Virus genome (UHGV): UHGV-0123274
Source of the DNA: a virus
Strand: one strand, 5' to 3'
Length of the DNA stretch: 15,494 nt
Below the pieces are notes generated by a model that was not told the DNA's origin, made no database searches, and saw nothing but the letters and a program-made list of their open reading frames with translations. The position numbers and the translations under genes were made by a program. Positions 1,532 to 15,494 of the stretch are shown here, one piece after another (within the stretch, counting starts at the first letter, position 1; each line of letters opens with the position of its first letter).

Positions 1532-2058
1532 GCCGCCCTCCTGACGCCCTGCCCGATCGCCATCAATGCCGCTTTGGATACGGTAGTAAACATCCGTCGA
1601 GGACTGATGAACGGTCGCCAAATCAGCAGCATGGAGCCTTTGCTGTTTCCCTTCTTCTCCAGCCCTGTCGATGGTTCGATAAAATTAATCCGTCCATCAG
1701 TGATAATGCGAACTTCGTCGACACTCTCCAGAGCCTTGCTGAACCATCCGACTGACATATCCTCTGGCACAAGCATAACTACCGTCTGTCGCTGTTGTAT
1801 GCACTGCTCAGCGGCTTTTTCCACCCACGGCCTGATATTGCTGTACGGTGGGTTATTCCAGATTGCACCGTGGCTTACCCACTCAGAATTGAGCGCGTCG
1901 TCGGCCTCAGTTAGCCAGTGAGCACACAGAGCATTTTTGTCGCTCGCTGCCGAATCCAGCCAGAATCCAAACTCAATATCCAGTGCATCAAAAAGCCAGA
2001 GCGGCGTTTGCCAGCAGTCTCTAACTTCTTTTGGTGTTTCTGATTTATGCTTAATCAT
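1528..2058 (-). CDS. dam: Phage Dam-family DNA N6-adenine methyltransferase
   Basis: 176-aa product with catalytic NPPY motif and LDSAAS SAM-binding-like segment; ATGA overlap with upstream HNH gene. Confidence 0.85.
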
Positions 2059-2582
2059 TCACCCCTCGCATATTGTCCGTGATATTTGTTGATAGCCTCA
2101 CTGGCAACCAAACCAGCAAGCTCAAGATCTTCATAGAACCCAAAATGCAACCGGCCAAAATCTGTGCGCACTTGAACGGCCCATTTATTTTTTTGCTTGT
2201 TCCATAAAACATTTTTTATTCCAGAACGGCTATTGCACTTAGTTTTCTGATTTCGGCTGTTTGCTATCCGGCTTGCCTCCCTAAGATTTTTTGGGGAATT
2301 GTCCAGCCTGTTTCCGTTAATATGGTCAATATTTTTCAATGGCATTCTTTTGTTGTGCAGCGCAAAAACAACTACGTGAACAAACATCTGAATGCCTGCA
2401 AAACACACCTGTCTATACCCAGATCCATTTATCGATGTTTTAATTTCATCTCCGGCCCGGTGGCTGTGGTTGGGGTGTTTTAGCGAGTCCTTTTTGTATC
2501 TGACTGTATCTCCGTCTAAATACAGATAATCCTCAATAAGCCGATACCTATCTGACGCTGGCGTATTTGATTTGATAGTCAT
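2055..2582 (-). CDS. HNH homing-type endonuclease (HNH motif plus AP2-like DNA-binding region)
   Basis: Motif NIDHINGNRLDNSPKNLR (HNH) followed by WNKQKNKWAVQV...FGFYED (AP2-like); ATG at 2582 overlaps ninB stop (ATGA); track ORF start 2642 lies inside ninB. Confidence 0.8.
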   Translation of the reverse strand: MTIKSNTPASDRYRLIEDYLYLDGDTVRYKKDSLKHPNHSHRAGDEIKTSINGSGYRQVCFAGIQMFVHVVVFALHNKRMPLKNIDHINGNRLDNSPKNLREASRIANSRNQKTKCNSRSGIKNVLWNKQKNKWAVQVRTDFGRLHFGFYEDLELAGLVASEAINKYHGQYARGE

Positions 2583-3019
2583 GCAGCCCGATCTCCCCAT
2601 CTCGCTTTCCACTCCAGAGCCAGTCTCGCTTCGTCTGACCACTTAACGCCACGCTCTGTACCGAATGCCTGTATAAGCTCTAATAGCTCCGCAAATTCGC
2701 CTACACGCATCCTGCTGGTTGACTGGCCTATTACCACAAAGCCATTCCCGGCAAGGTTAGGAACAACATCCTGCTGCTTTAATGCTGCGGTAAACACACA
2801 CTTCCAGCTTTCTGCATCCAGCCAGCGACCATGCCATTCAACCTGACGAGAGACGTCACCTAAGCAGGCCCATAGCTTCCTGTTTTGGTCTAAGCTGCGG
2901 TTGCGTTCCTGAATGGTTACTACGATTGGTTTGGTTGGGTCTGGAAGGATTTGCTGTACTGCGTGAATAGCGTTTTGCTGATGTGCTGGAGATCGAATTT
3001 CAAAGGTTAGTTTTTTCAT
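2579..3019 (-). CDS. ninB: NinB (Orf-family recombination mediator)
   Basis: Translation from MKKLTFEIRSPAHQQNAIHAVQQILPDPTKPIVVTIQERNRSLDQNRKLWA closely matches lambda NinB as recalled; GGAGAGGG Shine-Dalgarno upstream of ATG at 3019. Confidence 0.9.
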   Translation of the reverse strand: MKKLTFEIRSPAHQQNAIHAVQQILPDPTKPIVVTIQERNRSLDQNRKLWACLGDVSRQVEWHGRWLDAESWKCVFTAALKQQDVVPNLAGNGFVVIGQSTSRMRVGEFAELLELIQAFGTERGVKWSDEARLALEWKARWGDRAA

Positions 3020-3044
3020 GACTTCCCTCTCCCCCAAATAAAAA

Positions 3045-3075
3045 GGCCTGCGATTACCAGCAGGCCTGTTATTAG
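3045..3075 (-). terminator. Intrinsic terminator between helicase gene and ninB (tR2-like position)
   Basis: Hairpin ggcctgc-gattacca-gcaggcc at 3054..3075; on the minus strand followed by U-tract (complement of aaataaaaa 3045..3053). Confidence 0.55.
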
Positions 3076-3095
3076 CTCAGTGATGTAGATGGTCA

Positions 3096-4532
3096 TCAGA
3101 ATCCCCCTTTCTTCTTGGACTGCGGTTCCTTGCGTTCACGGCGGCGAATTTCAGCAGACTGTTGGTCTGTGTCATAAATAGCGCCATTTGCCTGAATGCA
3201 ATACACCGTACCGGTATTGCCATGACGATTGAGACGAAGGATTAGTTCGGTTTCACCAGGTGGAACACTGTCATCAAAAGCGCCTTCACGATGGATCCCA
3301 ACCCAATAATCGCAATCCTGTTCAATCTGCCCTGTATCTCGTGAGTCACTTGGTAATGGGCGTTTATTGGTTCGGCTTTCCAGTGCGCGGTTAAGCTGCG
3401 TCAGAAGCACAACAACGCAATCAAGCTCTTTGGCAAGGTTCTTCAGTCCTTTGGTGATCATGCCGTAAGCAAGGTCGTTGCGATCGGCCTTCTCAGCGGT
3501 CATTAGTGTCAGGTAATCGACCAGAATCATGCCAACACATCCTTTTTCTCGCTTGATTCGACGGCTTTCGCTGACGATTTGAGCCAGAGATAATCCCGGC
3601 GTGTCGTCGATGTAAAGCATGTCGATTTCACTCAAGCGATTAGCTGTTTCGATCGCCCTGTTGAAGGCACCATCGTAATCACCCTGATAGCCGTCATCAG
3701 CGTCATTTGTCGCCGGAAGGTAAAAAATATTCGGGTTAACACCAGACTTCTGCCCTACCAGTTTTTCCAGTATCTGATCACCTGGCATTTCAAGGCTGAA
3801 CATCAAAGCGGGCTTTTTCTCATGCACTGCGCAATTGATTGCCATCTGGCTGTATAGCGTCGTTTTCCCCATCTTAGGGCGAGCGCCAATGACAAACAGA
3901 GAGCCTTTCACCAGACCTTTCGGTGACAGCATCCTGTCCAGCGATGGGATCCCTGTGCTCATTCCCCGTTGTTCGCCTGATGGGTCAAATCGCTTCTCAA
4001 GGTCGCTAACCCAGTCTTCCATGACCTCACCAAATGAACGAAGGCCGCGACGCGATCCGGTTTTTGCATGGTCTGTCAGTTGCGTGAAAATCGCCTGAAT
4101 AGCTTCGTACTTCTGCGTTGCAGTCATTCCGTTGCGGGAATAGAGCAATTCCGTCGCTTCAGTCATGCGGTTGATGGCGTAGCGTTCCATTGCGGTTTCA
4201 CGAACCTGCATTGCATAGGCAACGATGTTTGCTGCGCTTGGCGTGTTCTTTGCGATCTCAGCGATATAAGCAAAACCGCCAACAGACGCCGTTAACGATT
4301 TACGCTCCAGTTCATCGAAAAGCGTCAGGCCATCTACTGGCTTTTGCTCCCGGTGCATTCTGGTTATTTCTTCGAAAAGGATTTTGTGTGGTCGGCCGTA
4401 AAATGAATCAGGCTTCAGCATCGCCAGAACTTTCCGGACGCGCTCACTGCTGTCATCATCCAGAAGCAATCCACCAATCACCGCCTGCTCTGCCTCGATG
4501 CTATGGGGCGGCGCATAAAAATTATCGGTCAT
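3096..4532 (-). CDS. DnaB-family replicative DNA helicase
   Basis: 478 aa from ATG at 4532 (GAGGG RBS); Walker A GARPKMGKT and DnaB-like N-terminal region; overlaps the stop of the O-like gene. Confidence 0.9.
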   Translation of the reverse strand: MTDNFYAPPHSIEAEQAVIGGLLLDDDSSERVRKVLAMLKPDSFYGRPHKILFEEITRMHREQKPVDGLTLFDELERKSLTASVGGFAYIAEIAKNTPSAANIVAYAMQVRETAMERYAINRMTEATELLYSRNGMTATQKYEAIQAIFTQLTDHAKTGSRRGLRSFGEVMEDWVSDLEKRFDPSGEQRGMSTGIPSLDRMLSPKGLVKGSLFVIGARPKMGKTTLYSQMAINCAVHEKKPALMFSLEMPGDQILEKLVGQKSGVNPNIFYLPATNDADDGYQGDYDGAFNRAIETANRLSEIDMLYIDDTPGLSLAQIVSESRRIKREKGCVGMILVDYLTLMTAEKADRNDLAYGMITKGLKNLAKELDCVVVLLTQLNRALESRTNKRPLPSDSRDTGQIEQDCDYWVGIHREGAFDDSVPPGETELILRLNRHGNTGTVYCIQANGAIYDTDQQSAEIRRRERKEPQSKKKGGF

Positions 4533-5421: not shown

Positions 5422-5560
5422 GACCTTTCTCCTTCTGCATCAGCTTCACTTTTTCCAACTCAGCCCGGAATCGACCAGGCTGCTTGAAGCTGGACAGGAA
5501 GCGATCACGTAGTATGTGTTTGTGAATTTTGTCCTGGTAAGGACTGAGTTGTTTTGTCAT
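5414..5560 (-). CDS. Small 48-aa ORF between cII and O, translationally coupled to O
   Basis: ATG at 5560 preceded by AGGAG 5 nt upstream; product [48 protein letters not shown]; stop overlaps the O start. Not in the ORF track (below its length cutoff). Confidence 0.4.
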
Positions 5561-5594
5561 AATGACTCCTGTTGATAGATCCAGTCTTTCTACA

Positions 5595-5873
5595 TCAGGC
5601 CTCGAAGAATTCGCCGTTCTTCGGGGCTTTTTCTTTTGTCAGCATTCTGGCTACTTTCTTAGCCAGTTCCGCCAACTCCTCGTCTTCAACACCCCATTCA
5701 AGAACAGCCAGAAGCATTCCCATTTTTGGGATGAAGCTGTCTTTCCATCGCGAAATTTGCGATTCATTAATCCCTAACGCGTCGGCAACCTTTCGCTGAC
5801 CACGTACAGCAATTCGATTCAGGATGTTGCTTGTAATTGCATTCGCTTTCTTGCGAGTACTTGTAAGTTGCAT
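5595..5873 (-). CDS. cII: CII transcriptional activator
   Basis: Motifs QISRWK, IPK and [10 protein letters not shown] match lambda CII; true start taken as ATG at 5873 (AAGGA RBS) because the longer track ORF would cover the nutR site. Confidence 0.85.
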
Positions 5874-5930
5874 ATGTAAGTATTTCCTTAACAAATAAGA
5901 AGTTATGCGCATCAAATTATGCGCGTTGTA

Positions 5931-5975
5931 TTCCCGCATTTCGGCGGGAATGAGGACCATGACTGTTAAAGAGCG
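5931..5975 (-). promoter_or_regulatory. nutR-like antitermination site (boxA plus boxB hairpin)
   Basis: Minus strand reads CGCTCTTTAACA (boxA consensus) then hairpin uucccgc-cgaaau-gcgggaa; located directly downstream of cro, as in lambda. Confidence 0.6.
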
Positions 5976-5983
5976 GGTACTGC

Positions 5984-6202
5984 TTAGGCGGCTTTGTTAC
6001 TGGATGGAGGGAAAACATCATCCAAAGAACATTGGCACCCTAACTTCCTGAGGCCTTCTACGATCATTCGGCAATCGTTAAGGCCAGGAGTACGGATATT
6101 CAGCTCATAGTTGGCGATGCGGGATTGCCCCCAACCAATTGCTGAAGCTAGTACAGCTTGCGAAACTCCGATTTTTTTTCGCTGCTGGGCAATTTTGTTC
6201 AT
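5984..6202 (-). CDS. cro: Cro-like repressor (XRE-type helix-turn-helix)
   Basis: 72 aa from ATG at 6202 with AGGGAG RBS; HTH segment IGVSQAVLASAIGWGQSRIANYE; divergent from cI. Confidence 0.8.
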   Translation of the reverse strand: MNKIAQQRKKIGVSQAVLASAIGWGQSRIANYELNIRTPGLNDCRMIVEGLRKLGCQCSLDDVFPPSSNKAA

Positions 6203-6219
6203 TGCGGTCTCCCTAGCAT

Positions 6220-6305
6220 TAATCACACACCCATTACACACAATTTGTGATTAACAGTCAACCTCAATTCGTGTACAGAGTTCAATCACGTTGCGTGTTA
6301 CATTT
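6220..6305. promoter_or_regulatory. oR operator region with pR (minus strand) and presumed pRM (plus strand)
   Basis: pR: -35 TTGACT (6256..6261) with 17-bp spacer and -10 TGTAAT (6233..6238) on minus strand; palindromic CACA..TGTG-type sites, one (acacaatttgtgatt) near-identical to a site in oL. Confidence 0.6.
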
Positions 6306-6310
6306 AAGGG

Positions 6311-6958
6311 ATGAAAACGATGCATGAAATTATCGGGGAAAGGATCAAGTCCCTTAGAGAAGCTAAAGGACTTAGCCAGGCTCAATTGGCCAAGCTTTGC
6401 GGCTGGGCTGCGCCTTCACGCCTGGGGAACTACGAGTTAGGAACAAGAAAGGTTAGCGCGGATGACGCGCTGGTTCTTGGGGCGGCACTCGGCGTATCTC
6501 CGGCAAAAATAATGTTTGGCGAGGATTCAGACGCCGTATTTCGCCAATATGAATACCCGTTATTTTCTTCAGTGCAGGCCGGGCCATTTTCGGAGGTGGG
6601 AAGCTACACAGCCAGCGATGCAAAGGCATGGGTCCCAACGACCACAAAAGCCAGCGAAAAAGCTTTCTGGCTTGAGGTGAAGGGGCATTCAATGACGGCG
6701 CCTCAGGGGGTTCGTCCAAGTTTTCCGGAAGGCATGCTGATACTCGTTGATCCGGCTGAGCCGGTAGAGTCTGGGGATTTCTGCGTGGCTTCTGCAAATG
6801 GTGATTCAGAGGCAACGTTCAAGAAGTATGAGAAGGATGCAGGGGTTAGTTACCTGGTACCTTTAAACCCGGCATATAGAACACTGGATTGCGACCATAG
6901 CTGCCGCATCATAGGCAAGGTAGTTAAGGCGCAGTGGCCTGAAGAGACGTTTGGCTGA
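6311..6958 (+). CDS. cI: CI-type prophage repressor (N-terminal HTH, C-terminal S24 LexA-like autopeptidase domain)
   Basis: 215 aa; [15 protein letters not shown]; Ala-Gly cleavage candidate in VQAGPF; Ser in GHSM and Lys in TFKKY; C-terminus AQWPEETFG resembles lambda cI as recalled. Confidence 0.9.
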
Positions 6959-7108
6959 TCGGCAAGGTGTTCTGGTCGGCGCATAGCTGGTGAAAAAATT
7001 ATTTAATGCGGTGTATTGGCTGATTGTAACCCCATGTAACATCTTGCCGTCACCATTTCGGTGGTTAGATTTTTAATAAAAAAAAACAAATGTATAGCAA
7101 GGTTTTTT

Positions 7109-7588
7109 ATGGATAAAATTAATTACCCACCCCTGTTTGAGCCAGGGTTCCATGACATGGATGAAGCTGGATTAAAATCGTATTGTGTCGATTGCTTTCC
7201 TTCATCATCCAGGCGAGGCATGCTATACTGTAATTTTATACAGCTACTCGAATCTATTCGAGAATTATCTGCTCAATATGGCTGTTTTACAGAAATATGG
7301 GTTGATGGTTCATACACCACGTCTAAACCAGAGCCTGATGATATTGATATTTTGTTGGTATGTGACTATAGCAATATAAACTCAATACCTGTCATGCTTC
7401 GGGGCCGCGTCGATAATTTGCTTGACCGAAACTACATCAAACAAAACTACAAAATTGATGTCCTACTACTCATGAAGAATTTAGATGACCCTAACTATGA
7501 TTATGAGTACTGGCGTAGCTACTGGCGCGGTTGGTTTGGTTTTGATCGCAGTGAAAACCCGAAAGGGTTAGTGAGGATTTTTTTATGA
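7109..7588 (+). CDS. Minimal nucleotidyltransferase-fold protein (Pol-beta superfamily), 159 aa; first gene of rexAB-position cassette
   Basis: Motif VDGSYTTSKPEPDDIDILLV fits the GS-x9-DxD signature (compare LFGSYARG...SDIDLLV in MNT proteins); ATG at 7109 preferred over GTG at 7061; visibly AT-rich. Confidence 0.65.
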   Translation: MDKINYPPLFEPGFHDMDEAGLKSYCVDCFPSSSRRGMLYCNFIQLLESIRELSAQYGCFTEIWVDGSYTTSKPEPDDIDILLVCDYSNINSIPVMLRGRVDNLLDRNYIKQNYKIDVLLLMKNLDDPNYDYEYWRSYWRGWFGFDRSENPKGLVRIFL

Positions 7589-8517
7589 ATGATAAATCAA
7601 TGTTTAAAAATTGCGATAAACGCATTGATTTCATTCAAAAAGAAGTCGATGCAATGAAGCAAAACAAAACCAGGTCCTTTGCTGACATGCTTCTTTATCG
7701 CTCCATGGATTCTCATCTGAGCGATTTGAAGGCCGAAAAATTAAAGCAAGATAGTCGGCACCCACTTATCGATTTTTTTGAGCTGCGGCTGAAAGGCTCT
7801 GAGGTTGACTTTGGCTCTATTCCTTTAGAGCTGCTTGGGGCTATTTCAACAAATCTTGCAGCGCTAATACAAAGAGCAACACACAAAATTGCCTCAGGCA
7901 AGGACTCAAAAAAAGTTCCCTACGACGTGAAAAGCTCCTTAAACCTCAGGCTGGCTGATTTATCCCCTGGGTCTACAAAATTGGGCGTCACCTTCTCTAC
8001 AGGAATAGCAGAATTAGTAGAAACAGTACCCAGCAAGGCTGTAAAAGGCATATTCGATTTGTTGTTAAGCGATGACGACAACAACTTCATGAATCACGTC
8101 GCTGAAATTGGATACAATTCCACTGTAAGCCTTAAGAGAATCGTAGAGGAATGCGATAAACACAACTTAACATTTGATGCAAGTTGGACCGGTCCATTTA
8201 GTAATGGCACCAAGGTGGCAACTATTGACTCCAATAAAATTAAGTACTTGGTGAGTAGACTTACATCAACCATTTCATCCCCTCCCATTACTGAAACGGT
8301 TACAGGCGAACTGGTCGTTCTATCCAAATATGGGAAGCTGGAGCTTGATGTTGGTGGTGAACATTTAAAGGCTTCCTATCCGATTGAAATGCTAGATTTA
8401 ATACAAAAAAAACACAAGGTCGGACAGATTGTTTCTCTTTTAGTGGAGACTACTGAGATTCACAATGATCGCATAGGTCTGTACCGTAAAAACCATCTTG
8501 TTAAATCGGTTCTTTAA
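7585..8517 (+). CDS. Hypothetical 310-aa protein, second gene of rexAB-position cassette; no confident domain
   Basis: ATGA overlap with upstream gene, GAGGA RBS; soluble-looking, no obvious TM segment; AT-rich. Confidence 0.75.
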   Translation: MNDKSMFKNCDKRIDFIQKEVDAMKQNKTRSFADMLLYRSMDSHLSDLKAEKLKQDSRHPLIDFFELRLKGSEVDFGSIPLELLGAISTNLAALIQRATHKIASGKDSKKVPYDVKSSLNLRLADLSPGSTKLGVTFSTGIAELVETVPSKAVKGIFDLLLSDDDNNFMNHVAEIGYNSTVSLKRIVEECDKHNLTFDASWTGPFSNGTKVATIDSNKIKYLVSRLTSTISSPPITETVTGELVVLSKYGKLELDVGGEHLKASYPIEMLDLIQKKHKVGQIVSLLVETTEIHNDRIGLYRKNHLVKSVL

Positions 8518-8524
8518 TATCTCA

Positions 8525-8550
8525 CCCGGCCACCGCGCCGGGTTTTTTAT
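8525..8550 (+). terminator. Intrinsic terminator after the cassette (tImm-like)
   Basis: Hairpin cccggc-caccgc-gccggg followed by tttttt; resembles the lambda terminator after rexB as recalled. Confidence 0.7.
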
Positions 8551-8764
8551 TGTCCGCCGATCACTATCAGGACAGCACCTGCCAGCCGGTCCAAACAATT
8601 GATTAAATTACTATAATTCTTAATACAACTCCCATATCCCGCCATCTCGCCACCACCACCTTCGCTCGTTTTTCGAACTTTTCAGCACCCATCCTGCTGT
8701 TGCCACCGACTTAAGTAAGCAAAACCATCGCGGGTAAAACTATTTACACAAAAAAATCATACAC

Positions 8765-8830
8765 ATAACGTGTCACACCTTTATTTTACACATTTTGTGA
8801 TTGACCATTAAATCACAATATGTGACTATC
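8765..8830 (+). promoter_or_regulatory. oL operator region and pL promoter
   Basis: -35 TTGACC (8801..8806), 17-bp spacer, -10 GACTAT (8824..8829); flanking palindromic sites acacattttgtgatt and tcacaatatgtga; downstream ATCAGCAGGACGC resembles the lambda pL start region as recalled. Confidence 0.6.
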
Positions 8831-8875
8831 ATTTCCATCAGCAGGACGCTGGTAGCCAAACGGAACATATTGGCA

Positions 8876-8917
8876 GGCTCTTTAACATTGATGGGATTGT
8901 CCCGCCGAAATGCGGGA
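8876..8917 (+). promoter_or_regulatory. nutL-like site (boxA plus boxB)
   Basis: GGCTCTTTAACA (boxA-like) then hairpin tcccgc-cgaaat-gcggga; boxB identical to the nutR copy. Confidence 0.6.
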
Positions 8918-9275
8918 ACTGAGTTTAACAAAACAGGAGGTGCCGTAATGGTGCACTAACGCGGTTAGACCGCAGCCGAAAGGCAATGCAGCAGTAATGA
9001 TGCTGCCCCGAGTCGCGTAATGGCGAGCAGGTTTAGCAGACCGATGTGAGGGTAAATAAGGGAACATGCTCCGGAAAGGCAGCGCGAATGCCAGACGCGC
9101 ACCGGTTATCAGCGGCTAATAAGCGACAGAGACTCAAGGGCATGAGCGCGCTCACTGCGAGAGTGTGAGTCAAAGAGTAGTTGGCTTTGGGGTGACGTGA
9201 AGTGCAGCTGCACGACGGCAACCGGAAGATAAGCACCCGGCGCGTCACCGCCAAAGTCAATCATCGGAGGTCAAC

Positions 9276-9548
9276 ATGACAGTAGTCATTACATATCTGG
9301 CTGACGATAACGCCAGAAATCGCCGCAGAGCACGCAGACAGGCTCAACGTGAACAGGCAATGCAAGAGCAGCGACTGGCACGAAAAATTGCGCTAAAGCT
9401 CTCTGGTTGCGTCAGAGCAGATAAAGCAGCATCACTCGGAAGCCTTTGCTGCAAGGAAGAAGATGAACGCAGTGGAAGTATTTGCCTGCCAAACGTAGCC
9501 ATTTACGCGGCAGGATACCGGAAATCAAAACAACTGACAGCGAGGTAA
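9276..9548 (+). CDS. N: N-type antiterminator with arginine-rich motif
   Basis: GGAGG RBS; N-terminal ARM NARNRRRARRQAQREQ; segment ARKIALKLSGCVRADKAASLGS resembles phage 21 N as recalled; first gene after pL/nutL. Confidence 0.7.
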   Translation: MTVVITYLADDNARNRRRARRQAQREQAMQEQRLARKIALKLSGCVRADKAASLGSLCCKEEDERSGSICLPNVAIYAAGYRKSKQLTAR

Positions 9549-9551
9549 GTG

Positions 9552-9776
9552 ATGAATCAGACATACATTCCATCATGCTTGAGAAATCTGCCAAAGCAGA
9601 AAGCAAAGCCCCGCAAGCAAGCCATAAAGGACGCTAAGGCAGAGGTTATTGATCAAGCAATACAATTGCTCAGGGAGGAGTTAAGAAGTGGCAAGCTCGA
9701 AGGAATGATGATGCCCTATCAGCGCGGATATCTATCGGCGATTAGTAAGTTGGAAGTATTGAAGAGTGAATTATGA
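9552..9776 (+). CDS. Hypothetical early-left protein, 74 aa
   Basis: ATG at 9552 with GAGG RBS immediately after the N stop. Confidence 0.5.
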   Translation: MNQTYIPSCLRNLPKQKAKPRKQAIKDAKAEVIDQAIQLLREELRSGKLEGMMMPYQRGYLSAISKLEVLKSEL

Positions 9777-9838
9777 ACTATCTGGAATTTCCGGATGGTT
9801 CATTGTTTTGGCAGCAAACCACTTATTTGAGGTGATAT

Positions 9839-10288
9839 ATGGAAGAACAAGCAAACAAGATTCTCGTAGAACTACTGCAAAAAGCCAGTAATGGAATAGA
9901 CGCGGCTGTTTCATTCAGCCAGGCACAGATTCCTGATGTTGTTCATCAGTTGCTGCTATGGAATATGGTTGACAGTCTGATTAAAACATTAATGGCCATT
10001 CTAACAATCCCACTGGTTTTCTGGTTTATGAAGAAGCAGTGCCAAAGAGTTGAGACAGGTAAAATCGGTGATGAAGGATATTCATGGGAGAAAGGAAATC
10101 CCAAATACATGCCGACAATGGTTTGGGATAGCAAAGGTGATATTAATCTTCTTATCATGCCATTGGTTGTAGTTTTGACTCTGTGGGGGATTTTTATTAT
10201 TGGTGTAGTAACCAATATGACTTGGTTAAAAATTTGGCTGGCCCCAAAGCTTTACCTTATCGAATATGCAGCATCATTGGTTAAGTAA
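9839..10288 (+). CDS. Small membrane protein, 149 aa, two predicted TM helices; possible superinfection-exclusion protein
   Basis: Hydrophobic stretches MAILTIPLVFWFM and LLIMPLVVVLTLWGIFIIGVV; GAGG RBS; followed directly by a terminator; AT-rich. Confidence 0.7.
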   Translation: MEEQANKILVELLQKASNGIDAAVSFSQAQIPDVVHQLLLWNMVDSLIKTLMAILTIPLVFWFMKKQCQRVETGKIGDEGYSWEKGNPKYMPTMVWDSKGDINLLIMPLVVVLTLWGIFIIGVVTNMTWLKIWLAPKLYLIEYAASLVK

Positions 10289-10292
10289 TTTC

Positions 10293-10317
10293 AGGCCGCA
10301 TAGTCGGCCTTTATTTT
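10293..10317 (+). terminator. Intrinsic terminator after the membrane-protein gene
   Basis: Hairpin aggccg-catagt-cggcct followed by ttatttt. Confidence 0.6.
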
Positions 10318-10340
10318 GGGCATAAACAACAGAGGTGAAT

Positions 10341-10628
10341 ATGAAAGAGTTTAAGGGTACGCCTGGTAAATGGAAGTACACGGTTAGAAACGTCAACGAG
10401 ATGATGACTACGTTCCATGGTGTGACGATTGGTGACACATACATTGAAGCAGCAACAAGAAATGAAAGGGAGGATGCGCTACTGATAGCGGCAGCACCTG
10501 ACCTTCTCGAAGCACTTCAGTTATTACTTAAGCAATCCAAAAATAGAACAACGACAACATATCCAGAATGGTATGAAGCTGTTAATAAAGGTCTTGCAGC
10601 AATCAGAAAAGCTCTTGGGGATAAGTAA
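10341..10628 (+). CDS. Hypothetical protein, about 95 aa
   Basis: ATG at 10341 with AGAGG RBS; the track ORF begins at an upstream GTG (10335). Confidence 0.55.
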   Translation: MKEFKGTPGKWKYTVRNVNEMMTTFHGVTIGDTYIEAATRNEREDALLIAAAPDLLEALQLLLKQSKNRTTTTYPEWYEAVNKGLAAIRKALGDK

Positions 10629-10816
10629 TGAAAGTAAAAATAACTGCTTCTAATACCAGTTTTGTTAGTGTTGGTGATATTACAGAAGTAATAACAAACC
10701 ATGATGGAACCCAAGTTATGTGGTCTGATTTTTGTAAAAGATATGAGCGAGTCACTTGGTGTAAACTCGTATGGGGCGTCGAATACGAAGAATTACCTGA
10801 AATGCATGACGAATAA
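10628..10816 (+). CDS. Hypothetical protein, 62 aa
   Basis: Start overlaps the upstream stop by one base (taATG); no recognisable motif. Confidence 0.45.
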   Translation: MKVKITASNTSFVSVGDITEVITNHDGTQVMWSDFCKRYERVTWCKLVWGVEYEELPEMHDE

Positions 10817-10911
10817 GCACTGTGTATTCATTCCAACGAGTGAATACACGGAGCAATGTCGCTCGTAACTAAACAGGAGCCGACTTGTTCTGATTATTGG
10901 AAATCTTCTTT

Positions 10912-10937
10912 GCCCTCCAGTGTGAGGGCTTTTTTAT
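10912..10937 (+). terminator. Intrinsic terminator upstream of cIII
   Basis: Hairpin gccctc-cagtgt-gagggc followed by tttttt. Confidence 0.6.
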
Positions 10938-11001
10938 ATGCATACCAATAACGCTTCACTCGAGGCGTTTTCGTTATGCAATCAAACAGAAGGAGCATCC
11001 T

Positions 11002-11172
11002 ATGCAACAGTTCGCTATTGCAGGGGCGGCATCGGTTCGCCCTTTCAACCCGATTTTATCGGTACAGCATTCACGAAAAAATATTTTAACCGGAGCAGAC
11101 TTTAAACAACCTCGCGTTAAGAGCTTGCTGGATCGTCTTGTTGAGTTTCTGAATCAAAAGGTACAGCCATGA
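11002..11172 (+). CDS. cIII: CIII-like protein (FtsH inhibitor that stabilises CII)
   Basis: 56 aa from ATG at 11002 with AGGAG RBS; MQQFAIAG...KSLLDRLVEFLNQ resembles lambda CIII (MQYAIAG...LIDILNQ) as recalled. Confidence 0.7.
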   Translation: MQQFAIAGAASVRPFNPILSVQHSRKNILTGADFKQPRVKSLLDRLVEFLNQKVQP

Positions 11173-11333
11173 AAAAACCAACTTACGAGGAACTGGAAGA
11201 AGCCCTGAAAGAGCTTAGAAGAATGGCTTTCGCCAGACGCACTAACTCTCACAACTGCGGCCCATTTCAGTACTCGGATTTATGCGAGGACATCATTGAG
11301 GTAACTCAACTGATTAAGGTCGTTAAGCAATGA
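11169..11333 (+). CDS. Small 54-aa ORF in the kil position
   Basis: ATGA overlap with cIII stop; product MKKPTYEELEEALKELRRMAFARRTNSHNCGPFQYSDLCEDIIEVTQLIKVVKQ; not in ORF track. Confidence 0.4.
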   Translation: MKKPTYEELEEALKELRRMAFARRTNSHNCGPFQYSDLCEDIIEVTQLIKVVKQ

Positions 11334-11414
11334 GTATTGCGGATACATGGTCAGACGAAGAATTCATTCGTCAGATGAACAAAATGCTCAATCAGCACAA
11401 AGAACAGGATAAAG

Positions 11415-11726
11415 ATGATGATTCTGACTCTGAATGATAAGCGTGAAATATCGCAAATAATCGCAAGTTTTACTGATGAAGATTACGAACGAATCAACAG
11501 TGAAGTTGATCGCCTCTGCAAACGTTGCGACCCAATAAGCGAAATGCTTCGCTCATATAAACCAGATGAACACACTAAGGACGCTATCGACTGGCTGGAA
11601 GATGATGACTGTAACTATCAGGAAAAAGCCGCTGAATGGTTCTGGGATGCAATAACCGAAAGAGTTAAGGCTGAATATGCCTTCGCAATATTCAAACGCA
11701 GACACATTTTTGGAGAAGCAGCATGA
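11415..11726 (+). CDS. Hypothetical protein, 103 aa, immediately upstream of recT
   Basis: ORF with ATGA coupling to recT at its 3' end; acidic, no recognised motif. Confidence 0.6.
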   Translation: MMILTLNDKREISQIIASFTDEDYERINSEVDRLCKRCDPISEMLRSYKPDEHTKDAIDWLEDDDCNYQEKAAEWFWDAITERVKAEYAFAIFKRRHIFGEAA

Positions 11727-12634
11727 GCAATATCGTTGAATTCGTTAAACAGCAAGAGCAGTTATTCTGCGGAGCATTGACTGAACAGACGGTGACATGG
11801 GCTAAGGAAAGCCAGTTTGCAATTCAGTATTTCCAGAAAAATGATTACCTGGCTAAAACTGCACTGGCAAATCCAACCAGCGCACAGAACGCCATCATCA
11901 ATGTTGCGGCGATCGGCATCACCTTAAACCCGGCTAGCAAACTGGCTTATCTGGTTCCGCGCGACGGCATGGTGTGCCTTGATATCAGCTATATGGGATT
12001 ACTACATATTGCAATGGAGTCTGGTGTTATCTCATGGGGTCAGGCAAAGCTTGTTCATGCTAACGATACTTATGAGTCAAACGGACTTGATAAAGCACCA
12101 ACCCATAAATACAACGCCTTCGGTGATCGTGGCGATATCGTTGGTGTTTACTGCACAGTTAAGACGCCAGCAGGTGATTATCTAACGGAAGAGATGAGTC
12201 TGGCTGAAATTGAGGCTGTAAGGAAAACAAGCAAGGCGGCATTCAGCGATAAAGGACCATGGGTAAATCACTGGAATGAGATGGCGCGAAAGACGGTCGT
12301 AAAGCGTGCAAGCAAGTATTGGCCTAAGGCATCACGTCTTGATAGTGCTATTCACGTACTAAACGAAGAAGAAGGTGTATGGACTGAACCAGTTATGCCG
12401 CACAAATCAGAGGAAGATATCCGCGAAGATGAACGGAAACGCCAGCAGGAAATAACGGATAAAGCACAACTTCTTTGTGATGAAATGGCTCAGGCTGAAA
12501 ACATGGATGATTTGAAGAGATATTTTGCAGAAGCATATCGCCTGACATCTGGAATGAAATTGCAGCAGAACATACAAGCCATTTACATAGAATGCAAAGC
12601 GAAACTGGAGGTTGCCAGTGAGCAAACTATATGA
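11723..12634 (+). CDS. recT: RecT-family single-strand annealing protein
   Basis: 303 aa; segment GPWVNHWNEMARKTVVKRASKYWP matches the conserved RecT core (GPWVTHWEEMAKKTAIRRLFKYLP as recalled); GGAGAAG RBS. Confidence 0.9.
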   Translation: MSNIVEFVKQQEQLFCGALTEQTVTWAKESQFAIQYFQKNDYLAKTALANPTSAQNAIINVAAIGITLNPASKLAYLVPRDGMVCLDISYMGLLHIAMESGVISWGQAKLVHANDTYESNGLDKAPTHKYNAFGDRGDIVGVYCTVKTPAGDYLTEEMSLAEIEAVRKTSKAAFSDKGPWVNHWNEMARKTVVKRASKYWPKASRLDSAIHVLNEEEGVWTEPVMPHKSEEDIREDERKRQQEITDKAQLLCDEMAQAENMDDLKRYFAEAYRLTSGMKLQQNIQAIYIECKAKLEVASEQTI

Positions 12635-13100
12635 AATTGCCAATGAATACGCAAAATTGATGGATTCAGATTTAGAACCAGAGATGATTGCTGACACAAT
12701 AGAAGGCATGGAAGGAGAATTTACCGATAAAATAGAACAACTTCTTTCCGTCATTAAAAATGAATCTGGTTATGCCGAACGCCTCAAGGAAGAGGCAAAG
12801 TCACTGAATGAGCGAGCCGCAGTAATTCAAAATAAGATTGACAGCATCAAATCATATATAGCGTCATCGCTTGAAATGGTTGGCAAGAAAAATATTCGAG
12901 CAGGTATTCACCAGGTAACAATCCGCAAACCGTCAGAAATTGTAGAAATAATCGACTCAAGCGCCCTTCCTCCTGAATACGTTGAGTTTGAAACGACAAT
13001 TAAAGCCGACAAACTGGCAATCAAGCACCAACTAAAAGCAGGAATAAATATTCCCGGTGCTCAACTCAAGGTTGGGGAACCTTCACTTCTTATCAAATAA
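12618..13100 (+). CDS. Recombination-module partner protein, about 160 aa, possibly Gp157-family (tentative)
   Basis: GTG at 12618 preceded by GGAGG; overlaps recT 3' end; coiled-coil-like composition; family call from memory only. Confidence 0.55.
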   Translation: MSKLYEIANEYAKLMDSDLEPEMIADTIEGMEGEFTDKIEQLLSVIKNESGYAERLKEEAKSLNERAAVIQNKIDSIKSYIASSLEMVGKKNIRAGIHQVTIRKPSEIVEIIDSSALPPEYVEFETTIKADKLAIKHQLKAGINIPGAQLKVGEPSLLIK

Positions 13101-13111
13101 CGGTATCGCCT

Positions 13112-13426
13112 ATGAAAAAGACTCCATGGGAGAAATGGGAAGTCGATTTCTTGCGCGAAGTATCGGCGACAATGCCAGTTGAAGTTATTGCTGAAAAACT
13201 GGAAAGGACTGAAAAATCAGTTATGGCGAAAGCAACAAGGATTGGCGCTGACATTGTTAGCCGACTTCGTGGAAGACGCTGGACAAGAGCCGAAGTATCA
13301 CTTTTCGGTAAGTTCTCCGCAGAAGAAATAGCAATTGCAACCTGCCGCTCAATTTATTCAGTAAGAGCTATGCGATACAAGCTAAAAAAACTCGATGAAG
13401 AAAGAGCAGGCATACGAATAAATTAA
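13112..13426 (+). CDS. Hypothetical protein, 104 aa
   Basis: Intact ORF in operon orientation; basic, possibly DNA-binding; no confident motif. Confidence 0.6.
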   Translation: MKKTPWEKWEVDFLREVSATMPVEVIAEKLERTEKSVMAKATRIGADIVSRLRGRRWTRAEVSLFGKFSAEEIAIATCRSIYSVRAMRYKLKKLDEERAGIRIN

Positions 13427-13442
13427 CATGGAGTAATTAACA

Positions 13443-13724
13443 ATGAAGCTAAACATCGACCTCGGAAAATACGTTATTACCGGAACCAAACACGATCTGA
13501 TTCTTAGCGAAAGAGGAATTATCAAAGAAGGCGAGAATGCAGGGAAAGAAACACTAAGTCGTATCGGTTATTACAGCAAGTTTGAGCATCTGGTCAAAGA
13601 GTTATGCAACCGTGAAATCCTGTTATCTCAGGCGCAGACGCTACAGGATATTCAGCAACATATCGAGACTTTAGCTGTGTCACTTAGCATGGCCGTTGAC
13701 CAGTTCGTGGAGAGTAAATCATGA
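13443..13724 (+). CDS. Hypothetical protein, 93 aa
   Basis: Intact ORF; coupled to the next small ORF via ATGA. Confidence 0.6.
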
Positions 13725-13885
13725 GAGGTCTTGCATACAATCCCGGCATTCTTCCGGCAGAAATGATTATTCGCCAACGCGTAAAGCCAATGCCATCGAG
13801 AGAGGAATTGCTTAAGAGAAATTCTTTTCCATCAGTGAATCAAAACAAGTATCTGAATGCGATGTTGCGGAGTGGGAAGAAATGA
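13721..13885 (+). CDS. Small 54-aa ORF bridging two coupled genes
   Basis: ATGA overlaps at both ends (13721 and 13882); not in ORF track. Confidence 0.4.
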
Positions 13886-14580
13886 AACAAATGACACTAA
13901 TTGAGATGGATGGATTTCTGAAAGGTAAATGCATCCCACGAGATTTAAAGGTTAACGAAACAAACGCTGAATATCTGGTGCGTAAATTTGCTGAGATTGA
14001 ATCAAAACTGGAAACGGCGTTGCGGGAGTGTCGTTCTGCTGGAATAACGATTGATAACCTTGAGGCCAAGTGCGCAGCGCTGGCTGCTGATAACAAGAAA
14101 GCAATGGAGGCAATGAGGCAGGCAGATGCAGCCGTTAAGTTGGCACACGAGAAGTTTTCGGCGCTGACTGCGGAGAATGCGGGGATGAAGGCGACATGTG
14201 AGGACCGTCGAACGTTCATTATGAACGGTGTGCAACTGGGTTATATCAAGGTTCCTACAGTAGATACAGACCCGGCACTTGATACCATTCGTGTTGCTGT
14301 ATCACCACAAGAACCAACCCCAGCCACCGACGCTTTCTTGGCTGAAGTGAAGACTGAAGCACGCAAGGAGGGCGCTTACTTTGTTGCGAACAGAATGCTG
14401 GCTGCCTGGGAAGCTGGTTTTATTGATGATACTGCGAAGAACGCCGCTGATATTGCCCGGATGATTCTTACCTCTACTGAGTTTATGGCTAATGCGCCGG
14501 AAGGCGATTTTGACCGCTCATTCTCTGATGGCGTACTCGAAGACATCGCTGCCCAGCTTCGCAAAGGAGTGCAGTCATGA
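13882..14580 (+). CDS. Hypothetical coiled-coil protein, 232 aa (possibly Ea22-like; low confidence)
   Basis: Alanine- and charge-rich helical composition; translational coupling on both sides. Confidence 0.7.
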
Positions 14581-14837
14581 GCATTCTTGAAATTCTAAAC
14601 ACTGGCCTCGCTCTGATGGGGTGGTTATTCATCATGTTCAAAACGGGCCAGTGGTTTATCTCCATTGCGCTAAAGCAGTGGGATAAGCGTAGAAAGCTAT
14701 CTCGTAGACAGAAGGCAGTAAACGAATTTTACGATGCGTTTGACCTGTCCAGCATCGAACCAGGAACAACGGTGCGCCTGGCGACTAAAGGCGATCTGAC
14801 AATCATGATGTATCGCACAGAAGGATCCGCCCAATGA
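14577..14837 (+). CDS. Small single-pass membrane protein, 86 aa
   Basis: AAGGAG RBS, ATGA coupling; hydrophobic segment LALMGWLFIMF near the N-terminus. Confidence 0.6.
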   Translation: MSILEILNTGLALMGWLFIMFKTGQWFISIALKQWDKRRKLSRRQKAVNEFYDAFDLSSIEPGTTVRLATKGDLTIMMYRTEGSAQ

Positions 14838-15433
14838 GCAACATCAACAAACAGGCGCTGCGTGGTCAGAGCGTCGAAGGTTCGTATTACCTGGCAGAAT
14901 GTGGTCATTGTGGCGAGATGTACCCAAGTAACAAGCTGGATGGAGGTGAGTCGCTATTTTCCGGCGATTACGGTGAATGCTTCTGCCACCTCTGTGGCGC
15001 TGATGATTCTGATATTGCAGATAACGGCGCGTGGGGTTCTGAGGCTGTAACAGCATGGAATTATCAGCAGAAGCGTATCGAAGCGCTGCTGGATGAGAAC
15101 TACAGGCTGACTGCGGAGCGTGATGCTCTGCGAGAAAACATAGGCGGTGACAACACCCGTGCAGCTGCTGATATTTACTTCCAACTGGTCGAGGAGTGCG
15201 AAATTCCTGCTGGCGGATCTCTGGTCGAATACGTTGATGATATGCGCGAGAAGCTGGAAGCCGCAGAGAAGCGCATTGCAGAACTGGAAGCACGGGAAAT
15301 ATCGCTCCCAGAACGTAGCAGCATGCTTCATCGAACAGATTTCCACGAGGATTACCAAACGGTAATGGCATACAAAGTTTCTGAAGTCATCGCTGCAATC
15401 CGCGCTGCAGGCATTCGCATCAAAGGAGAGTGA
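14834..15433 (+). CDS. Hypothetical protein, 199 aa, with N-terminal Cys/His cluster (putative zinc ribbon) and coiled-coil C-terminus
   Basis: ATGA coupling to upstream gene; CGHCG...CFCHLCG motif; preferred over the long antisense ORFs because of operon context. Confidence 0.7.
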   Translation: MSNINKQALRGQSVEGSYYLAECGHCGEMYPSNKLDGGESLFSGDYGECFCHLCGADDSDIADNGAWGSEAVTAWNYQQKRIEALLDENYRLTAERDALRENIGGDNTRAAADIYFQLVEECEIPAGGSLVEYVDDMREKLEAAEKRIAELEAREISLPERSSMLHRTDFHEDYQTVMAYKVSEVIAAIRAAGIRIKGE

Positions 15434-15439
15434 TATGAG

Positions 15440-15494
15440 CACTGGATGATATGGGCGCAGATAGCACATGCAGACGTAACCAATATTCGAATTG
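15440..15494. repeat. Right copy of the perfect 55-bp terminal inverted repeat
   Basis: Exact reverse complement of 1..55; begins 6 nt after the stop of the last plus-strand gene. Confidence 0.9.

Follow-up and report, generated by a model that had tools for sequence, protein, structure and literature searches.

The locus

The DNA analysed here (UHGV virus genome UHGV-0123274, 15,494 nucleotides, hereafter the window) comes from a lambdoid phage or prophage and covers its immunity and early region, in which cI, cro, cII, an O-like gene, DnaB, NinB and N are all present. Its closest relatives are HK140, mEpX1 and Kapi1, with nucleotide matches of 96-99%. Our subject is a module of three translationally coupled genes, which encode a small acidic protein, a RecT-family annealase and a protein of the Sipho_Gp157 family (Table 1). 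The module has been conserved as one block in each of 80 related viral contigs, and 302 of 5,426 complete E. coli genomes (~5.6%) carry it.

Table 1. Coordinates of the recombination module and neighbouring features in the window
Feature	Position	Strand	Evidence or remark
NinB, lambda Orf-type recombination mediator	2579..3037	-	PF05772, 2.3e-54
orf102/103, small acidic all-helical protein	11415/11418..11726	+	PHROG 3486 (unknown function), 3.7e-59
recT, 303 aa	11723-12634	+	contains GPWVNHWNEMARKT
RecT annealase core, residues 1-218	11723..12376	+	PF03837 over residues 31-217
RecT C-terminal region, residues 219-303	12377..12634	+	identity comparisons
Portable "CTD-A" domain, ~46 residues, RecT 251-296	12473-12610	+	travels with Gp157 genes
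Shine-Dalgarno GGAGG	12607..12611	+	read from sequence; 6 nt before GTG start, within recT end
Sipho_Gp157-family protein, 160 aa (GTG start to stop)	12618..13100	+	PF05565 2.7e-37, PHROG 253 2.4e-54
Small basic HTH protein, 104 aa	13112..13426	+	PHROG "transcriptional regulator, D5-like"

RecT and the gene upstream

Matches to the Pfam RecT family (PF03837, E 2.9e-32, 112.3 bits against a cutoff of 24) and to PHROG 148 (7.6e-92), together with the presence of GPWVNHWNEMARKT, bear out the identification of recT that had been made from the sequence alone. The protein also passes the NCBIfam phage RecT subfamily TIGR00616, at 82.4 bits against a cutoff of 52.65. The equivalog model for Rac prophage RecT, NF007351, gave 101.8 bits against a cutoff of 296, which places the protein in the RecT family but not as a Rac orthologue. 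Its core is 45-78% identical to those of phi80 (61%), TL-2011c, Vibrio 1.178.O, Aeromonas 56, Yersinia YenM_12 and Stenotrophomonas CUB19.

The stop codon of orf102/103 overlaps the recT start in an ATGA, and the gene lies upstream of RecT in 78 of the 80 related viral contigs. Its product has a pI of 4.65 and a net charge of -9, and the AlphaFold2 (AF2) model has five helices. Searches of Pfam, PADLOC and NCBIfam returned no significant match to it. The slot is held by true lambda Gam in L160 and L161 (PF06064, 2e-50) and by GamL in phi80, HK639 and KO-TP1.

One explanation of the module would make this upstream protein its key accessory, a diverged factor of the Gam or Abc2 kind. By inhibiting or reprogramming RecBCD, it would make the host enzyme resect DNA for RecT, in the way that P22 Abc2 serves Erf. 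The shared slot favours such a role, as do the translational coupling to recT, the acidic, helical character and length of the protein (~100 aa, against 98 aa for the Gam of L160), and a motif, DDDCNYQEKAAEW, that stands at a position collinear with DDDVEFQERAAEF of Gam (shuffle p 0.0014 for L160 Gam and 0.018 for lambda Gam). Against it, there is no Pfam match to Gam or Abc2, with nothing to PF06064 even at E up to 1, and hhalign to Gam gives 6%. The family is tiny, with 27 clusters only, those with a source name being from E. coli, and the structural model is of medium confidence (pLDDT 74.7). The gene is dispensable for this type of module: HK639, PA-1 and Aeromonas phages that do not have it keep RecT with its C-terminal CTD-A domain, described below, together with Gp157. 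We consider it unlikely that this protein is the key to the module, although it may serve as an additional anti-RecBCD or accessory factor. A very diverged Gam is a possibility; we do not claim homology with lambda Gam, since a 22-residue local motif is the sole shared feature. Identity with GamL was considered too, and no similarity was found.

Search for an exonuclease

All sizeable ORFs of the window were scanned with Pfam and no exonuclease was detected, the only relevant matches being an HNH endonuclease, NinB, Dam and DnaB. We also built an HMM from six lambda-Exo/YqaJ exonucleases and searched with it in six frames. It found nothing in the window, in the complete genomes of HK140 and Kapi1, in the mEpX1 region, or in the prophage region of E. 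coli MB53, which was examined as far as int and tRNA-Thr. In HK140 and Kapi1, the early-left ORFs that were still unassigned have no nuclease domain in Pfam. RecE was excluded by Pfam scans and record annotations alone, the HMM being of the lambda-Exo/YqaJ type. By these Pfam and lambda-Exo/YqaJ searches no exo gene adjoins the annealase, and the module was rejected as a two-component exonuclease-annealase system of the lambda Red or RecET kind, even though related RecTs with an exonuclease occur in phi80, TL-2011c and others.

Because the window stops within the early-left operon, at an Ea22-like gene, an exonuclease partner could lie outside these 15.5 kb. This is the least probable of the explanations that we considered, and we give it almost no weight. 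In relatives that carry the module (96-99% identity) there is no HMM match, no gene annotated as an exonuclease and, among the early-left ORFs of unknown function, no nuclease domain; a phi80- or TL-2011c-type exo is found within 3 kb in none of the 80 related contigs. The sequence-only reading had reported no exonuclease-like ORF in the window and had named two findings that would count against it, an exonuclease fold in a neighbouring gene and an exonuclease gene just beyond the window. Both objections fall away, since no exonuclease turned up in the neighbouring genes or in the flanks of HK140, Kapi1, mEpX1 and MB53. However, the premise from which it started, that RecT-type annealases usually pair with an exonuclease, was too general: in a published survey, a nuclease is missing from 84 of 246 lambdoid Rec modules, those of P22 and HK620 being classic cases (PMC12315714).

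The downstream protein

The gene that stands where an exonuclease might be expected overlaps recT by 17 nt and begins with GTG. In 80 of 80 related contigs it is the next gene after recT, and its homologues are 160 aa long in almost all of the 120 matches listed. A 162-aa ORF with a TTG start matches PF05565 over residues 5-162 and the whole of the profile (positions 1-162 of 162) at 128.7 bits against 28.6, and the same family is matched by 109 of 109 diverse relatives. Sipho_Gp157 is a large family, with 12,216 representatives at 50% clustering, and PHROG 253 carries the label "Mu Gam-like end protection".

Phage Mu Gam is a Ku-like DNA-end binder that blocks RecBCD. By hhalign, Gp157 and Mu Gam are matched with a probability of 80-82% (P 1e-5), collinear over 114 columns and thus nearly the full protein, a probability that is limited by the shallow Gam profile (Neff about 2), as the fetched Mu Gam homologues and related loci were mostly near-identical. 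Cross-matches to the Gam family PF07352 were obtained for 26 of the 109 diverse family members at a loose threshold of E up to 1, with 5e-6 for the best of them. The HK639 orthologue, which is 63% identical to the window protein, covers profile positions 13-147 of 149 at E 0.0038 and 17.6 bits, under the cutoff of 28.3, while the window protein itself has no Pfam match to PF07352. Another Sipho_Gp157 protein matched the Gam structure 2P2U in HHpred at 99.4% (PMC10530707). Our own hhalign against the 2P2U fragment alone gave a probability of 0.8%, a single sequence being too thin for the test. No structural match to the Gam/Ku fold was recovered with the model of the 160-aa protein, and HMMER profiles A1 and A4 drew only coiled-coil noise from PDB sequences. 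Judged by its family profiles, the 160-aa protein is remotely related to Mu Gam, and we infer that it is probably a DNA-end-binding, anti-RecBCD protein. Nevertheless, plain RecBCD inhibition may not be its whole job, as Gp157 co-occurs with dedicated RecBCD inhibitors, lambda Gam in L160 and L161 and GamL in HK639 and KO-TP1.

Could the protein instead be an unrecognised nuclease that does the resection itself? It occupies the exo slot, and the C-terminal half of its AF2 model (pLDDT 82.6) runs helix, three strands, helix, strand, an order loosely like a PD-(D/E)XK core. Foldseek returned weak matches among viral models to several exonucleases, among them a PD-(D/E)XK protein of Tsukamurella phage TIN4 (E 6e-3) and others at E 0.3-0.7, but with poor TM-scores and high rmsd. 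No nuclease match was found in Pfam, PHROGs, NCBIfam or PDB sequences, and profile similarity favours Mu Gam. The residues that are near-invariant across the 109 diverse members are L4, K38, Y80, P118, K132, G142 and G147 and no others. No acidic residue is conserved in at least 90% of these members, and D113 and E123 are invariant among close relatives only. A PD-(D/E)XK identity would call for conserved catalytic residues, acidic and lysine, on the beta-sheet core; as the Sipho_Gp157 family has no conserved acidic ones, we reject the nuclease explanation, which we regard as very improbable.

Thus the sequence-only description of an overlapping 160-aa gene with no nuclease motifs holds, and the absence of any nuclease family match agrees with it. 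Its label of a small coiled-coil protein is half right: the model has one long helix (residues 21-87), which is followed by a beta-rich C-terminal half. The suggestion that this neighbour is a non-canonical partner for RecT stands as far as it makes the protein a non-nuclease accessory. It does not stand as a novelty, because the arrangement is already catalogued and the family is recognisable as Sipho_Gp157.

Domain exchange at the end of RecT

The C-terminal region of the window RecT shares 46% identity with that of HK639. With the C-termini of exo-partnered RecTs it shares only 10-20%, although the cores are 45-78% identical. Within this region, the 46-residue CTD-A segment and the C-terminus of an annealase of a different family, the Erf of Pantoea phage PdC23, share 54% identity (E 1e-16). 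In all, CTD-A is carried by seven RecT lineages and one Erf, each adjoining a Gp157 gene. Gp157 lies downstream, and exo is absent, in 8 of 8 lineages with CTD-A, whereas exo is present and Gp157 absent in 6 of 6 RecTs without it (Fisher p = 3.3e-4 over 14 lineages that are not phylogenetically independent).

The sampled exo-partnered RecTs with closely related cores end in a different domain. An alignment of their C-termini is homologous to the Red-beta CTD (hhalign 99.6%), and of six tested directly, four, those of phi80, TL-2011c, Vibrio 1.178.O and Aeromonas 56, align visibly with the Red-beta type. The CTD-A class, in contrast, shows no relation to the Red-beta CTD (hhalign probability 0.3%) and was set aside as a domain of that type; a search of PDB sequences found no relative of it. 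The Red-beta CTD binds both Exo and SSB, and has been crystallised with lambda Exo (PDB 6M9K; PMC6393309). The exchange of exo for Gp157 takes in the end of RecT, with CTD-A in place of the Exo-binding, Red-beta-type CTD. The Gp157 gene has the place of exo in phi80 and TL-2011c: HK639 (GamL-RecT-Gp157-orf) and phi80 (GamL-RecT-Exo-orf) differ in one slot, and the next downstream gene is 92% identical.

This tracking of domain and partner suggests, at the level of sequence, that Gp157 may be a physical partner of the annealase. We hypothesize, tentatively and at somewhat less than even odds, that it is the dedicated physical partner, with a task beyond the blocking of RecBCD, and that, once a Gp157 dimer has bound a DNA end, RecT or Erf docks on it through CTD-A. 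The result would be an exonuclease-free recombinase made of an end-binder plus an annealase, with a docking logic analogous to that of the Red-beta CTD and lambda Exo.

The same pattern might arise with no contact between the two proteins. Gp157 could be a free-standing anti-RecBCD or end-protection protein, the RecT C-terminus being either an effect of a mosaic junction or a binder of something else, such as host SSB. As the CTD-A coding region adjoins and overlaps the Gp157 gene, linkage alone could yield the association, through co-inheritance by mosaic recombination. The Red-beta CTD binds SSB as well as Exo, so a C-terminal domain of RecT may have a use other than docking a partner (PMC6393309). 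Relatives of Gp157 are also found beside Sak4 and Erf recombinases of unrelated architecture (PMC8093625); those beside Sak4 have companions without CTD-A, and a specific docking domain is thus not universal in the family. In the published survey, MuGam figures simply as an anti-RecBCD function (PMC12315714). Against mere co-inheritance, the association outlasts the divergence of the domain to 46-56% identity across five host genera, and it persists on an Erf core and where an HNH gene is inserted between the two genes. The domain lost, too, is exactly the one that binds the lost partner, Exo. We rate a free-standing Gp157 as rather unlikely, though as the most credible of the alternatives.

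Proposed mechanism

Genes 11418-13100 are best explained as an HK140-type Rec module of the early-left (pL) operon. We propose that such a module would work as follows. Dimers of Gp157 would bind dsDNA ends in the fashion of Mu Gam, whether on injected genomes, rolling-circle tails or breaks, and RecBCD would be kept off. The C-terminal domain of RecT would dock it on Gp157, so that RecT would become concentrated at DNA ends, where it would anneal whatever single strand is available there or at replication forks. The single strand would come from host helicases and nucleases or from replication, not from a phage exonuclease; a host source had already been proposed from the sequence, and no lambda-Exo/YqaJ-type phage exonuclease was detected. 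We put the probability of this explanation as a whole, from the HK140-type module and end-binding Gp157 to docking through the CTD and host- or replication-derived ssDNA, at roughly 0.6.

If CTD-A does dock the annealase, RecT or Erf, on a Gp157 dimer at a DNA end, this would explain how annealases mix and match with different partners and would show how a phage can recombine without an exonuclease of its own. It would also provide a small cassette of two genes, for an annealase and an end protector, that could be tried in dsDNA recombineering of recBCD+ hosts. The question further bears on recent work on defence, in which end-binding GamMu-type proteins were found to sensitise phages to the Gabija system (PMC12407980).

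Relation to known systems

A RecT plus Mu-Gam-like module without a nuclease is real, yet it is a known, common and catalogued lambdoid type. HK140 has been described as RecT (SAP-4) plus MuGam, with no nuclease and no SSB (Zheng, Casjens, Davidson, Amundsen, Smith, Genome Res 2025, PMC12315714). The window has the same gene trio as HK140, in the same order and with the same overlaps, at the same place in the early-left operon, with cIII/kil on one side and the ea genes on the other. The HK140 RecT is 99% identical, its Gp157 gene is also 483 nt long and bears the record label "Mu Gam-like end protection", and the region has 96.6% nucleotide identity. We find no difference of substance; the window carries a further copy, flanked by other morons. 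The CTD-A swap is the point that goes beyond the published description of the HK140 type, in which the "shuffling of partner interaction domains" was "beyond the scope" and neither the RecT CTD swap nor the small upstream gene was analysed (PMC12315714).

Lambda Red (Gam-Beta-Exo) and phi80 (GamL-RecT-Exo) share with the window a three-slot layout of small inhibitor, annealase and partner, as well as the operon and the translational coupling. All three slots nevertheless differ: Gam or GamL is replaced by an unrelated acidic protein, the Exo-binding Red-beta-type CTD by an unrelated domain, and Exo by the non-nuclease Gp157.

P22 (Erf/Abc1/Abc2) and HK620 (Sak4) resemble the window in having an annealase with no phage exonuclease and an anti-RecBCD function (PMC12315714, PMC3784561), but the family of the annealase and the type of anti-RecBCD protein are unlike those found here. 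The target of Abc2 is RecC; that of a Mu Gam-type protein is the DNA end. The founder of the Sipho_Gp157 family, orf157 of Streptococcus thermophilus phage Sfi21, belongs to the same Pfam family as the window protein and is 29% identical to it over 94% of the length; this gene and other Gp157 genes of Firmicutes likewise lie beside a recombinase gene. In Firmicutes phages, however, Gp157 is usually upstream of erf or sak4, and RecT is typically accompanied by a YqaJ or DUF3799 exonuclease (PMC8093625), whereas the gene in the window is downstream of RecT and belongs to Gammaproteobacteria.

Mu Gam (174 aa) is similar in size to the window Gp157 (160 aa), has a long N-terminal helix followed by a beta-rich half as that protein does, and shares its PHROG label. 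Mu Gam and bacterial Ku (PF07352; 2P2U) form a separate Pfam family from PF05565, and Mu has no annealase, whereas the window Gp157 stands beside one in a recombination module.

Among the other features of the window, NinB is its second phage recombination function and lies outside the Rec module, in the early-right operon. The window has no Chi sites (0.35 expected) and HK140 has four in a single orientation, numbers that are too small for interpretation. Immediately downstream of Gp157, the gene for the small basic HTH protein accompanies the module in 75 of 80 related contigs; its product has a pI of 10.0 and matches PHROG 11492 (4e-22) and PHROG 323 (1.7e-19). In Mu, gp9, which carries the same "D5-like" label, is encoded directly upstream of gam.

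A recT module without a detectable exonuclease

The sequence-only reading had described a RecT annealase lacking an exonuclease partner and followed by a small overlapping gene, and this observation is confirmed. Pfam and PHROG scans covered all sizeable ORFs of the window (see table), and by Pfam none of the ORFs scanned encodes an exonuclease. A six-frame search with an HMM of six lambda-Exo/YqaJ exonucleases likewise gave no match in the window, in complete HK140 and Kapi1, in the mEpX1 region, or in the prophage region of E. coli MB53, which was searched as far as int and tRNA-Thr; in HK140 and Kapi1, no nuclease domain was seen in early-left ORFs of unknown function. An exonuclease just outside the window, a possibility that reading had itself raised, was thus not encountered in these relatives. 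The stop of the upstream gene overlaps the recT start as ATGA, and the Gp157 gene begins at a GTG codon 6 nt past a GGAGG, overlapping recT by 17 nt, so that translation of all three genes is coupled. The Gp157 product has 160 aa, as do nearly all of its homologues listed.

Features of the window and of the related loci compared
Feature	Position	Strand	Assignment
cro-like gene, cII, O-like replication gene, DnaB, NinB, HNH endonuclease, Dam, NinX		-	Pfam/PHROG
HNH endonuclease	2055-2642	-	PF13392, 5.5e-11
LexA-type cI repressor, two moron genes, N antiterminator, then early-left operon		+	Pfam/PHROG
PDC-M63 component A	7061-7588	+	PADLOC 2.4e-41; also Pfam DUF6932
PDC-M63 component B	7585-8517	+	PADLOC 7.5e-45
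Region between PDC-M63B gene and N	8520-9275		
Early-left operon	9200-15494	+	
Upstream gene	11415/11418-11726	+	PHROG of unknown function
recT	11723-12634	+	PF03837, 2.9e-32; PHROG 148, 7.6e-92; TIGR00616 over cutoff
CTD-A (RecT residues 251-296)	12473-12610	+	
Gp157 gene	12618-13100	+	Sipho_Gp157, full length, E 2.7e-37; PHROG 253 'Mu Gam-like end protection', 2.4e-54
Small basic HTH protein, gene after Gp157	13112-13426	+	PHROG 'transcriptional regulator, D5-like'
Lambda Gam, viral contig L160	2693-2989		PF06064, 2e-50
HNH homing endonuclease, Pantoea PdC23 (L175)	2040-2504		
RecT locus, Stx2a phage JNE090861 (L171)	2202-3352		
gp9 and gam, phage Mu (L005)	5482-6325		

The gene order is GamL-RecT-Exo(YqaJ)-orf in phi80, gam-like-RecT-Exo-SSB in TL-2011c, and GamL-RecT-Gp157-orf in HK639. 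Between HK639 and phi80 the GamL proteins are 53% identical and the genes after the slot 92% identical, and therefore Gp157 occupies the exact position of Exo. All 80 viral contigs that encode a close RecT have Gp157 directly downstream of it; 78 also carry the small upstream gene, 75 carry the D5-like HTH gene, and no lambda-type exo occurs within 3 kb in any of them. In phages of Vibrio, Aeromonas, Yersinia and Stenotrophomonas, RecTs whose cores are 45-78% identical to that of the window all have an exonuclease as the next gene.

Such arrangements are already known, since RecT with Gp157/MuGam and no nuclease appears in Zheng et al. (PMC12315714), who list 84 modules without nuclease and GamL plus MuGam in HK639. 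In Firmicutes phages, Gp157 and Mu-gam-like genes occupy a common slot beside erf and sak4 (Szczepankowska et al., PMC8093625), and the search of Bobay et al. 2013 was limited to lambda Gam and Abc2 (PF06064, PF11043). The earlier proposal of a non-canonical partner or a host nuclease is thus partly supported: no lambda-Exo/YqaJ-type exonuclease is detected, but the arrangement was already published and Gp157 belongs to a named family. Only the analyses of the RecT C-terminal domain and of the upstream gene go, slightly, beyond published work.

The RecT C-terminus follows the partner type

In its core, the window RecT shares 78% identity with the RecT of Vibrio phage 1.178.O and 74% with that of HK639; over the last 85 residues the values are 15% (Vibrio) and 46% (HK639). 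Within this tail, the domain that we call CTD-A shares 54% identity (E 1e-16) with the C-terminal end of the Erf annealase of Pantoea phage PdC23, whose core is unrelated to RecT and whose module carries a Gp157 62% identical to the window's. A tblastn search with the RecT tail found CTD-A in 24 phage records. Eight distinct lineages were compared: Escherichia (the window and HK639), Pantoea (two), Klebsiella, Pseudomonas and Aeromonas (two). All eight have Gp157 downstream and no exo, and all six RecTs without CTD-A have exo and no Gp157 (Fisher p = 3.3e-4).

The exo-partnered tails are homologous to the C-terminal domain of lambda Red-beta (alignment hhalign 99.6%), with that of phi80 at 72% identity and those of Vibrio, Aeromonas 56 and TL-2011c aligning beside it; the Yersinia and Stenotrophomonas tails diverge more from this type. 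The Red-beta domain has been crystallised in complex with lambda Exo (PDB 6M9K) and also binds SSB (PMC6393309). CTD-A is unrelated to it (hhalign probability <1%), and no relative of CTD-A was found in the PDB. Co-inheritance alone could produce the association of CTD-A with Gp157, because the two coding regions abut. The simplest reading of these alignments is that a Red-beta-type domain and Exo would have been exchanged, as a domain-plus-partner cassette, for CTD-A and Gp157. Zheng et al. considered partner-domain shuffling likely, yet 'beyond the scope' of their study (PMC12315714).

Gp157 and a possible mechanism

Sipho_Gp157 is a very large family, with 12,216 representatives left after clustering at 50%. 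A profile made from 143 diverse members matched Mu Gam homologues with a probability of 80-82% (P ~1e-5; the Gam profile is shallow), in a collinear alignment of 114 columns (residues 27-153 vs 36-159). At a loose threshold of E up to 1, 26 of 109 diverse members cross-matched PF07352 (best 5e-6); the HK639 orthologue (63% identity) did so over profile positions 13-147 of 149, at E 0.0038, under the Pfam cutoff. Another Sipho_Gp157 protein matched the Gam crystal structure 2P2U at 99.4% by HHpred (PMC10530707).

A hidden nuclease in this neighbouring gene is unlikely because the only near-invariant residues of the family (L4, K38, Y80, P118, K132, G142, G147) include no acidic catalytic set. 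In a Foldseek search of viral predicted structures, the Gp157 model weakly matched several PD-(D/E)XK or RecB-like exonucleases (E 6e-3 to 0.7), one of them a 398-aa protein of Tsukamurella phage TIN4 (probability 1.0); these might be exonucleases with an extra Gp157-like domain, or noise.

We hypothesize that Gp157 dimers would cap double-stranded DNA ends and keep RecBCD out, as Mu Gam biology suggests (PMC12315714, PMC12407980), and that CTD-A would dock RecT on Gp157, as the domain swap suggests if Red-beta and Exo are taken as a model. Obvious candidate sources of single-stranded DNA would be replication forks and RecJ/RecQ-type resection by the host. To such a recombinase, a docked end-binder plus an annealase, we assign a probability of roughly 0.4. 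That real Gam or GamL is present in some Gp157 modules hints that the role of Gp157 is not merely redundant RecBCD inhibition.

The upstream gene

The upstream protein (102-103 aa) is acidic (pI 4.65), all-helical in a predicted model, and of narrow distribution, with a single family assignment (table). Its slot holds GamL in HK639 and KO-TP1, and true lambda Gam in two contigs, L160 and L161, where a RecT 97-98% identical to the window's and Gp157 stand unchanged beside it, so that each of these modules has two distinct proteins with an anti-RecBCD label. The upstream protein and Gam share a short collinear motif, DDDCNYQEKAAEW vs DDDVEFQERAAEF (shuffle p 0.0014 and 0.018), but hhalign gives a probability of 6% only. 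The apparent resemblance is no more than a lead.

Genomic setting

By its gene content, the window is a lambdoid early region. Its early-left operon consists of mosaic blocks with 96-99% identity to HK140, mEpX1, Gally and Kapi1; the 1.7 kb at 11415-13100 is 99.3% identical to E. coli MP1, the host of Kapi1, and is present in 302 of 5,426 complete E. coli genomes.

In three of the 80 contigs (L162, L163, L168) an HNH homing endonuclease of ~155 aa separates recT from the Gp157 gene, another likewise separates the annealase and Gp157 genes of PdC23, and an HNH endonuclease is listed in the corresponding region of phage Louie. The window's own HNH endonuclease lies in the nin region between NinB and Dam, where HK140 has none. 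The module of Stx2a phage JNE090861 looks disrupted: GamL is followed by a RecT matching the window's over the core only (residues 1-218), and the downstream ORFs of 70 aa or more on the RecT strand include neither an exonuclease nor Gp157. In phage Mu, gp9 bears the same 'D5-like' label as the window's HTH protein after Gp157 and lies directly upstream of gam, and the pairing of Gam and HTH may be conserved across very different phages.

Chi is mostly absent where a phage combines a Rec module with an inhibitor (published survey, PMC12315714); the window has no Chi octamer against 0.35 expected, and HK140 has four, in a single orientation. The overlapping gene pair between cI and N, at the position of lambda rexAB, matches the PADLOC candidate defence system PDC-M63, is shared with mEpX1, and is probably a prophage-encoded anti-phage system. 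The ~750 bp that follow it have no convincing ORF and presumably hold pL/nutL-type signals.
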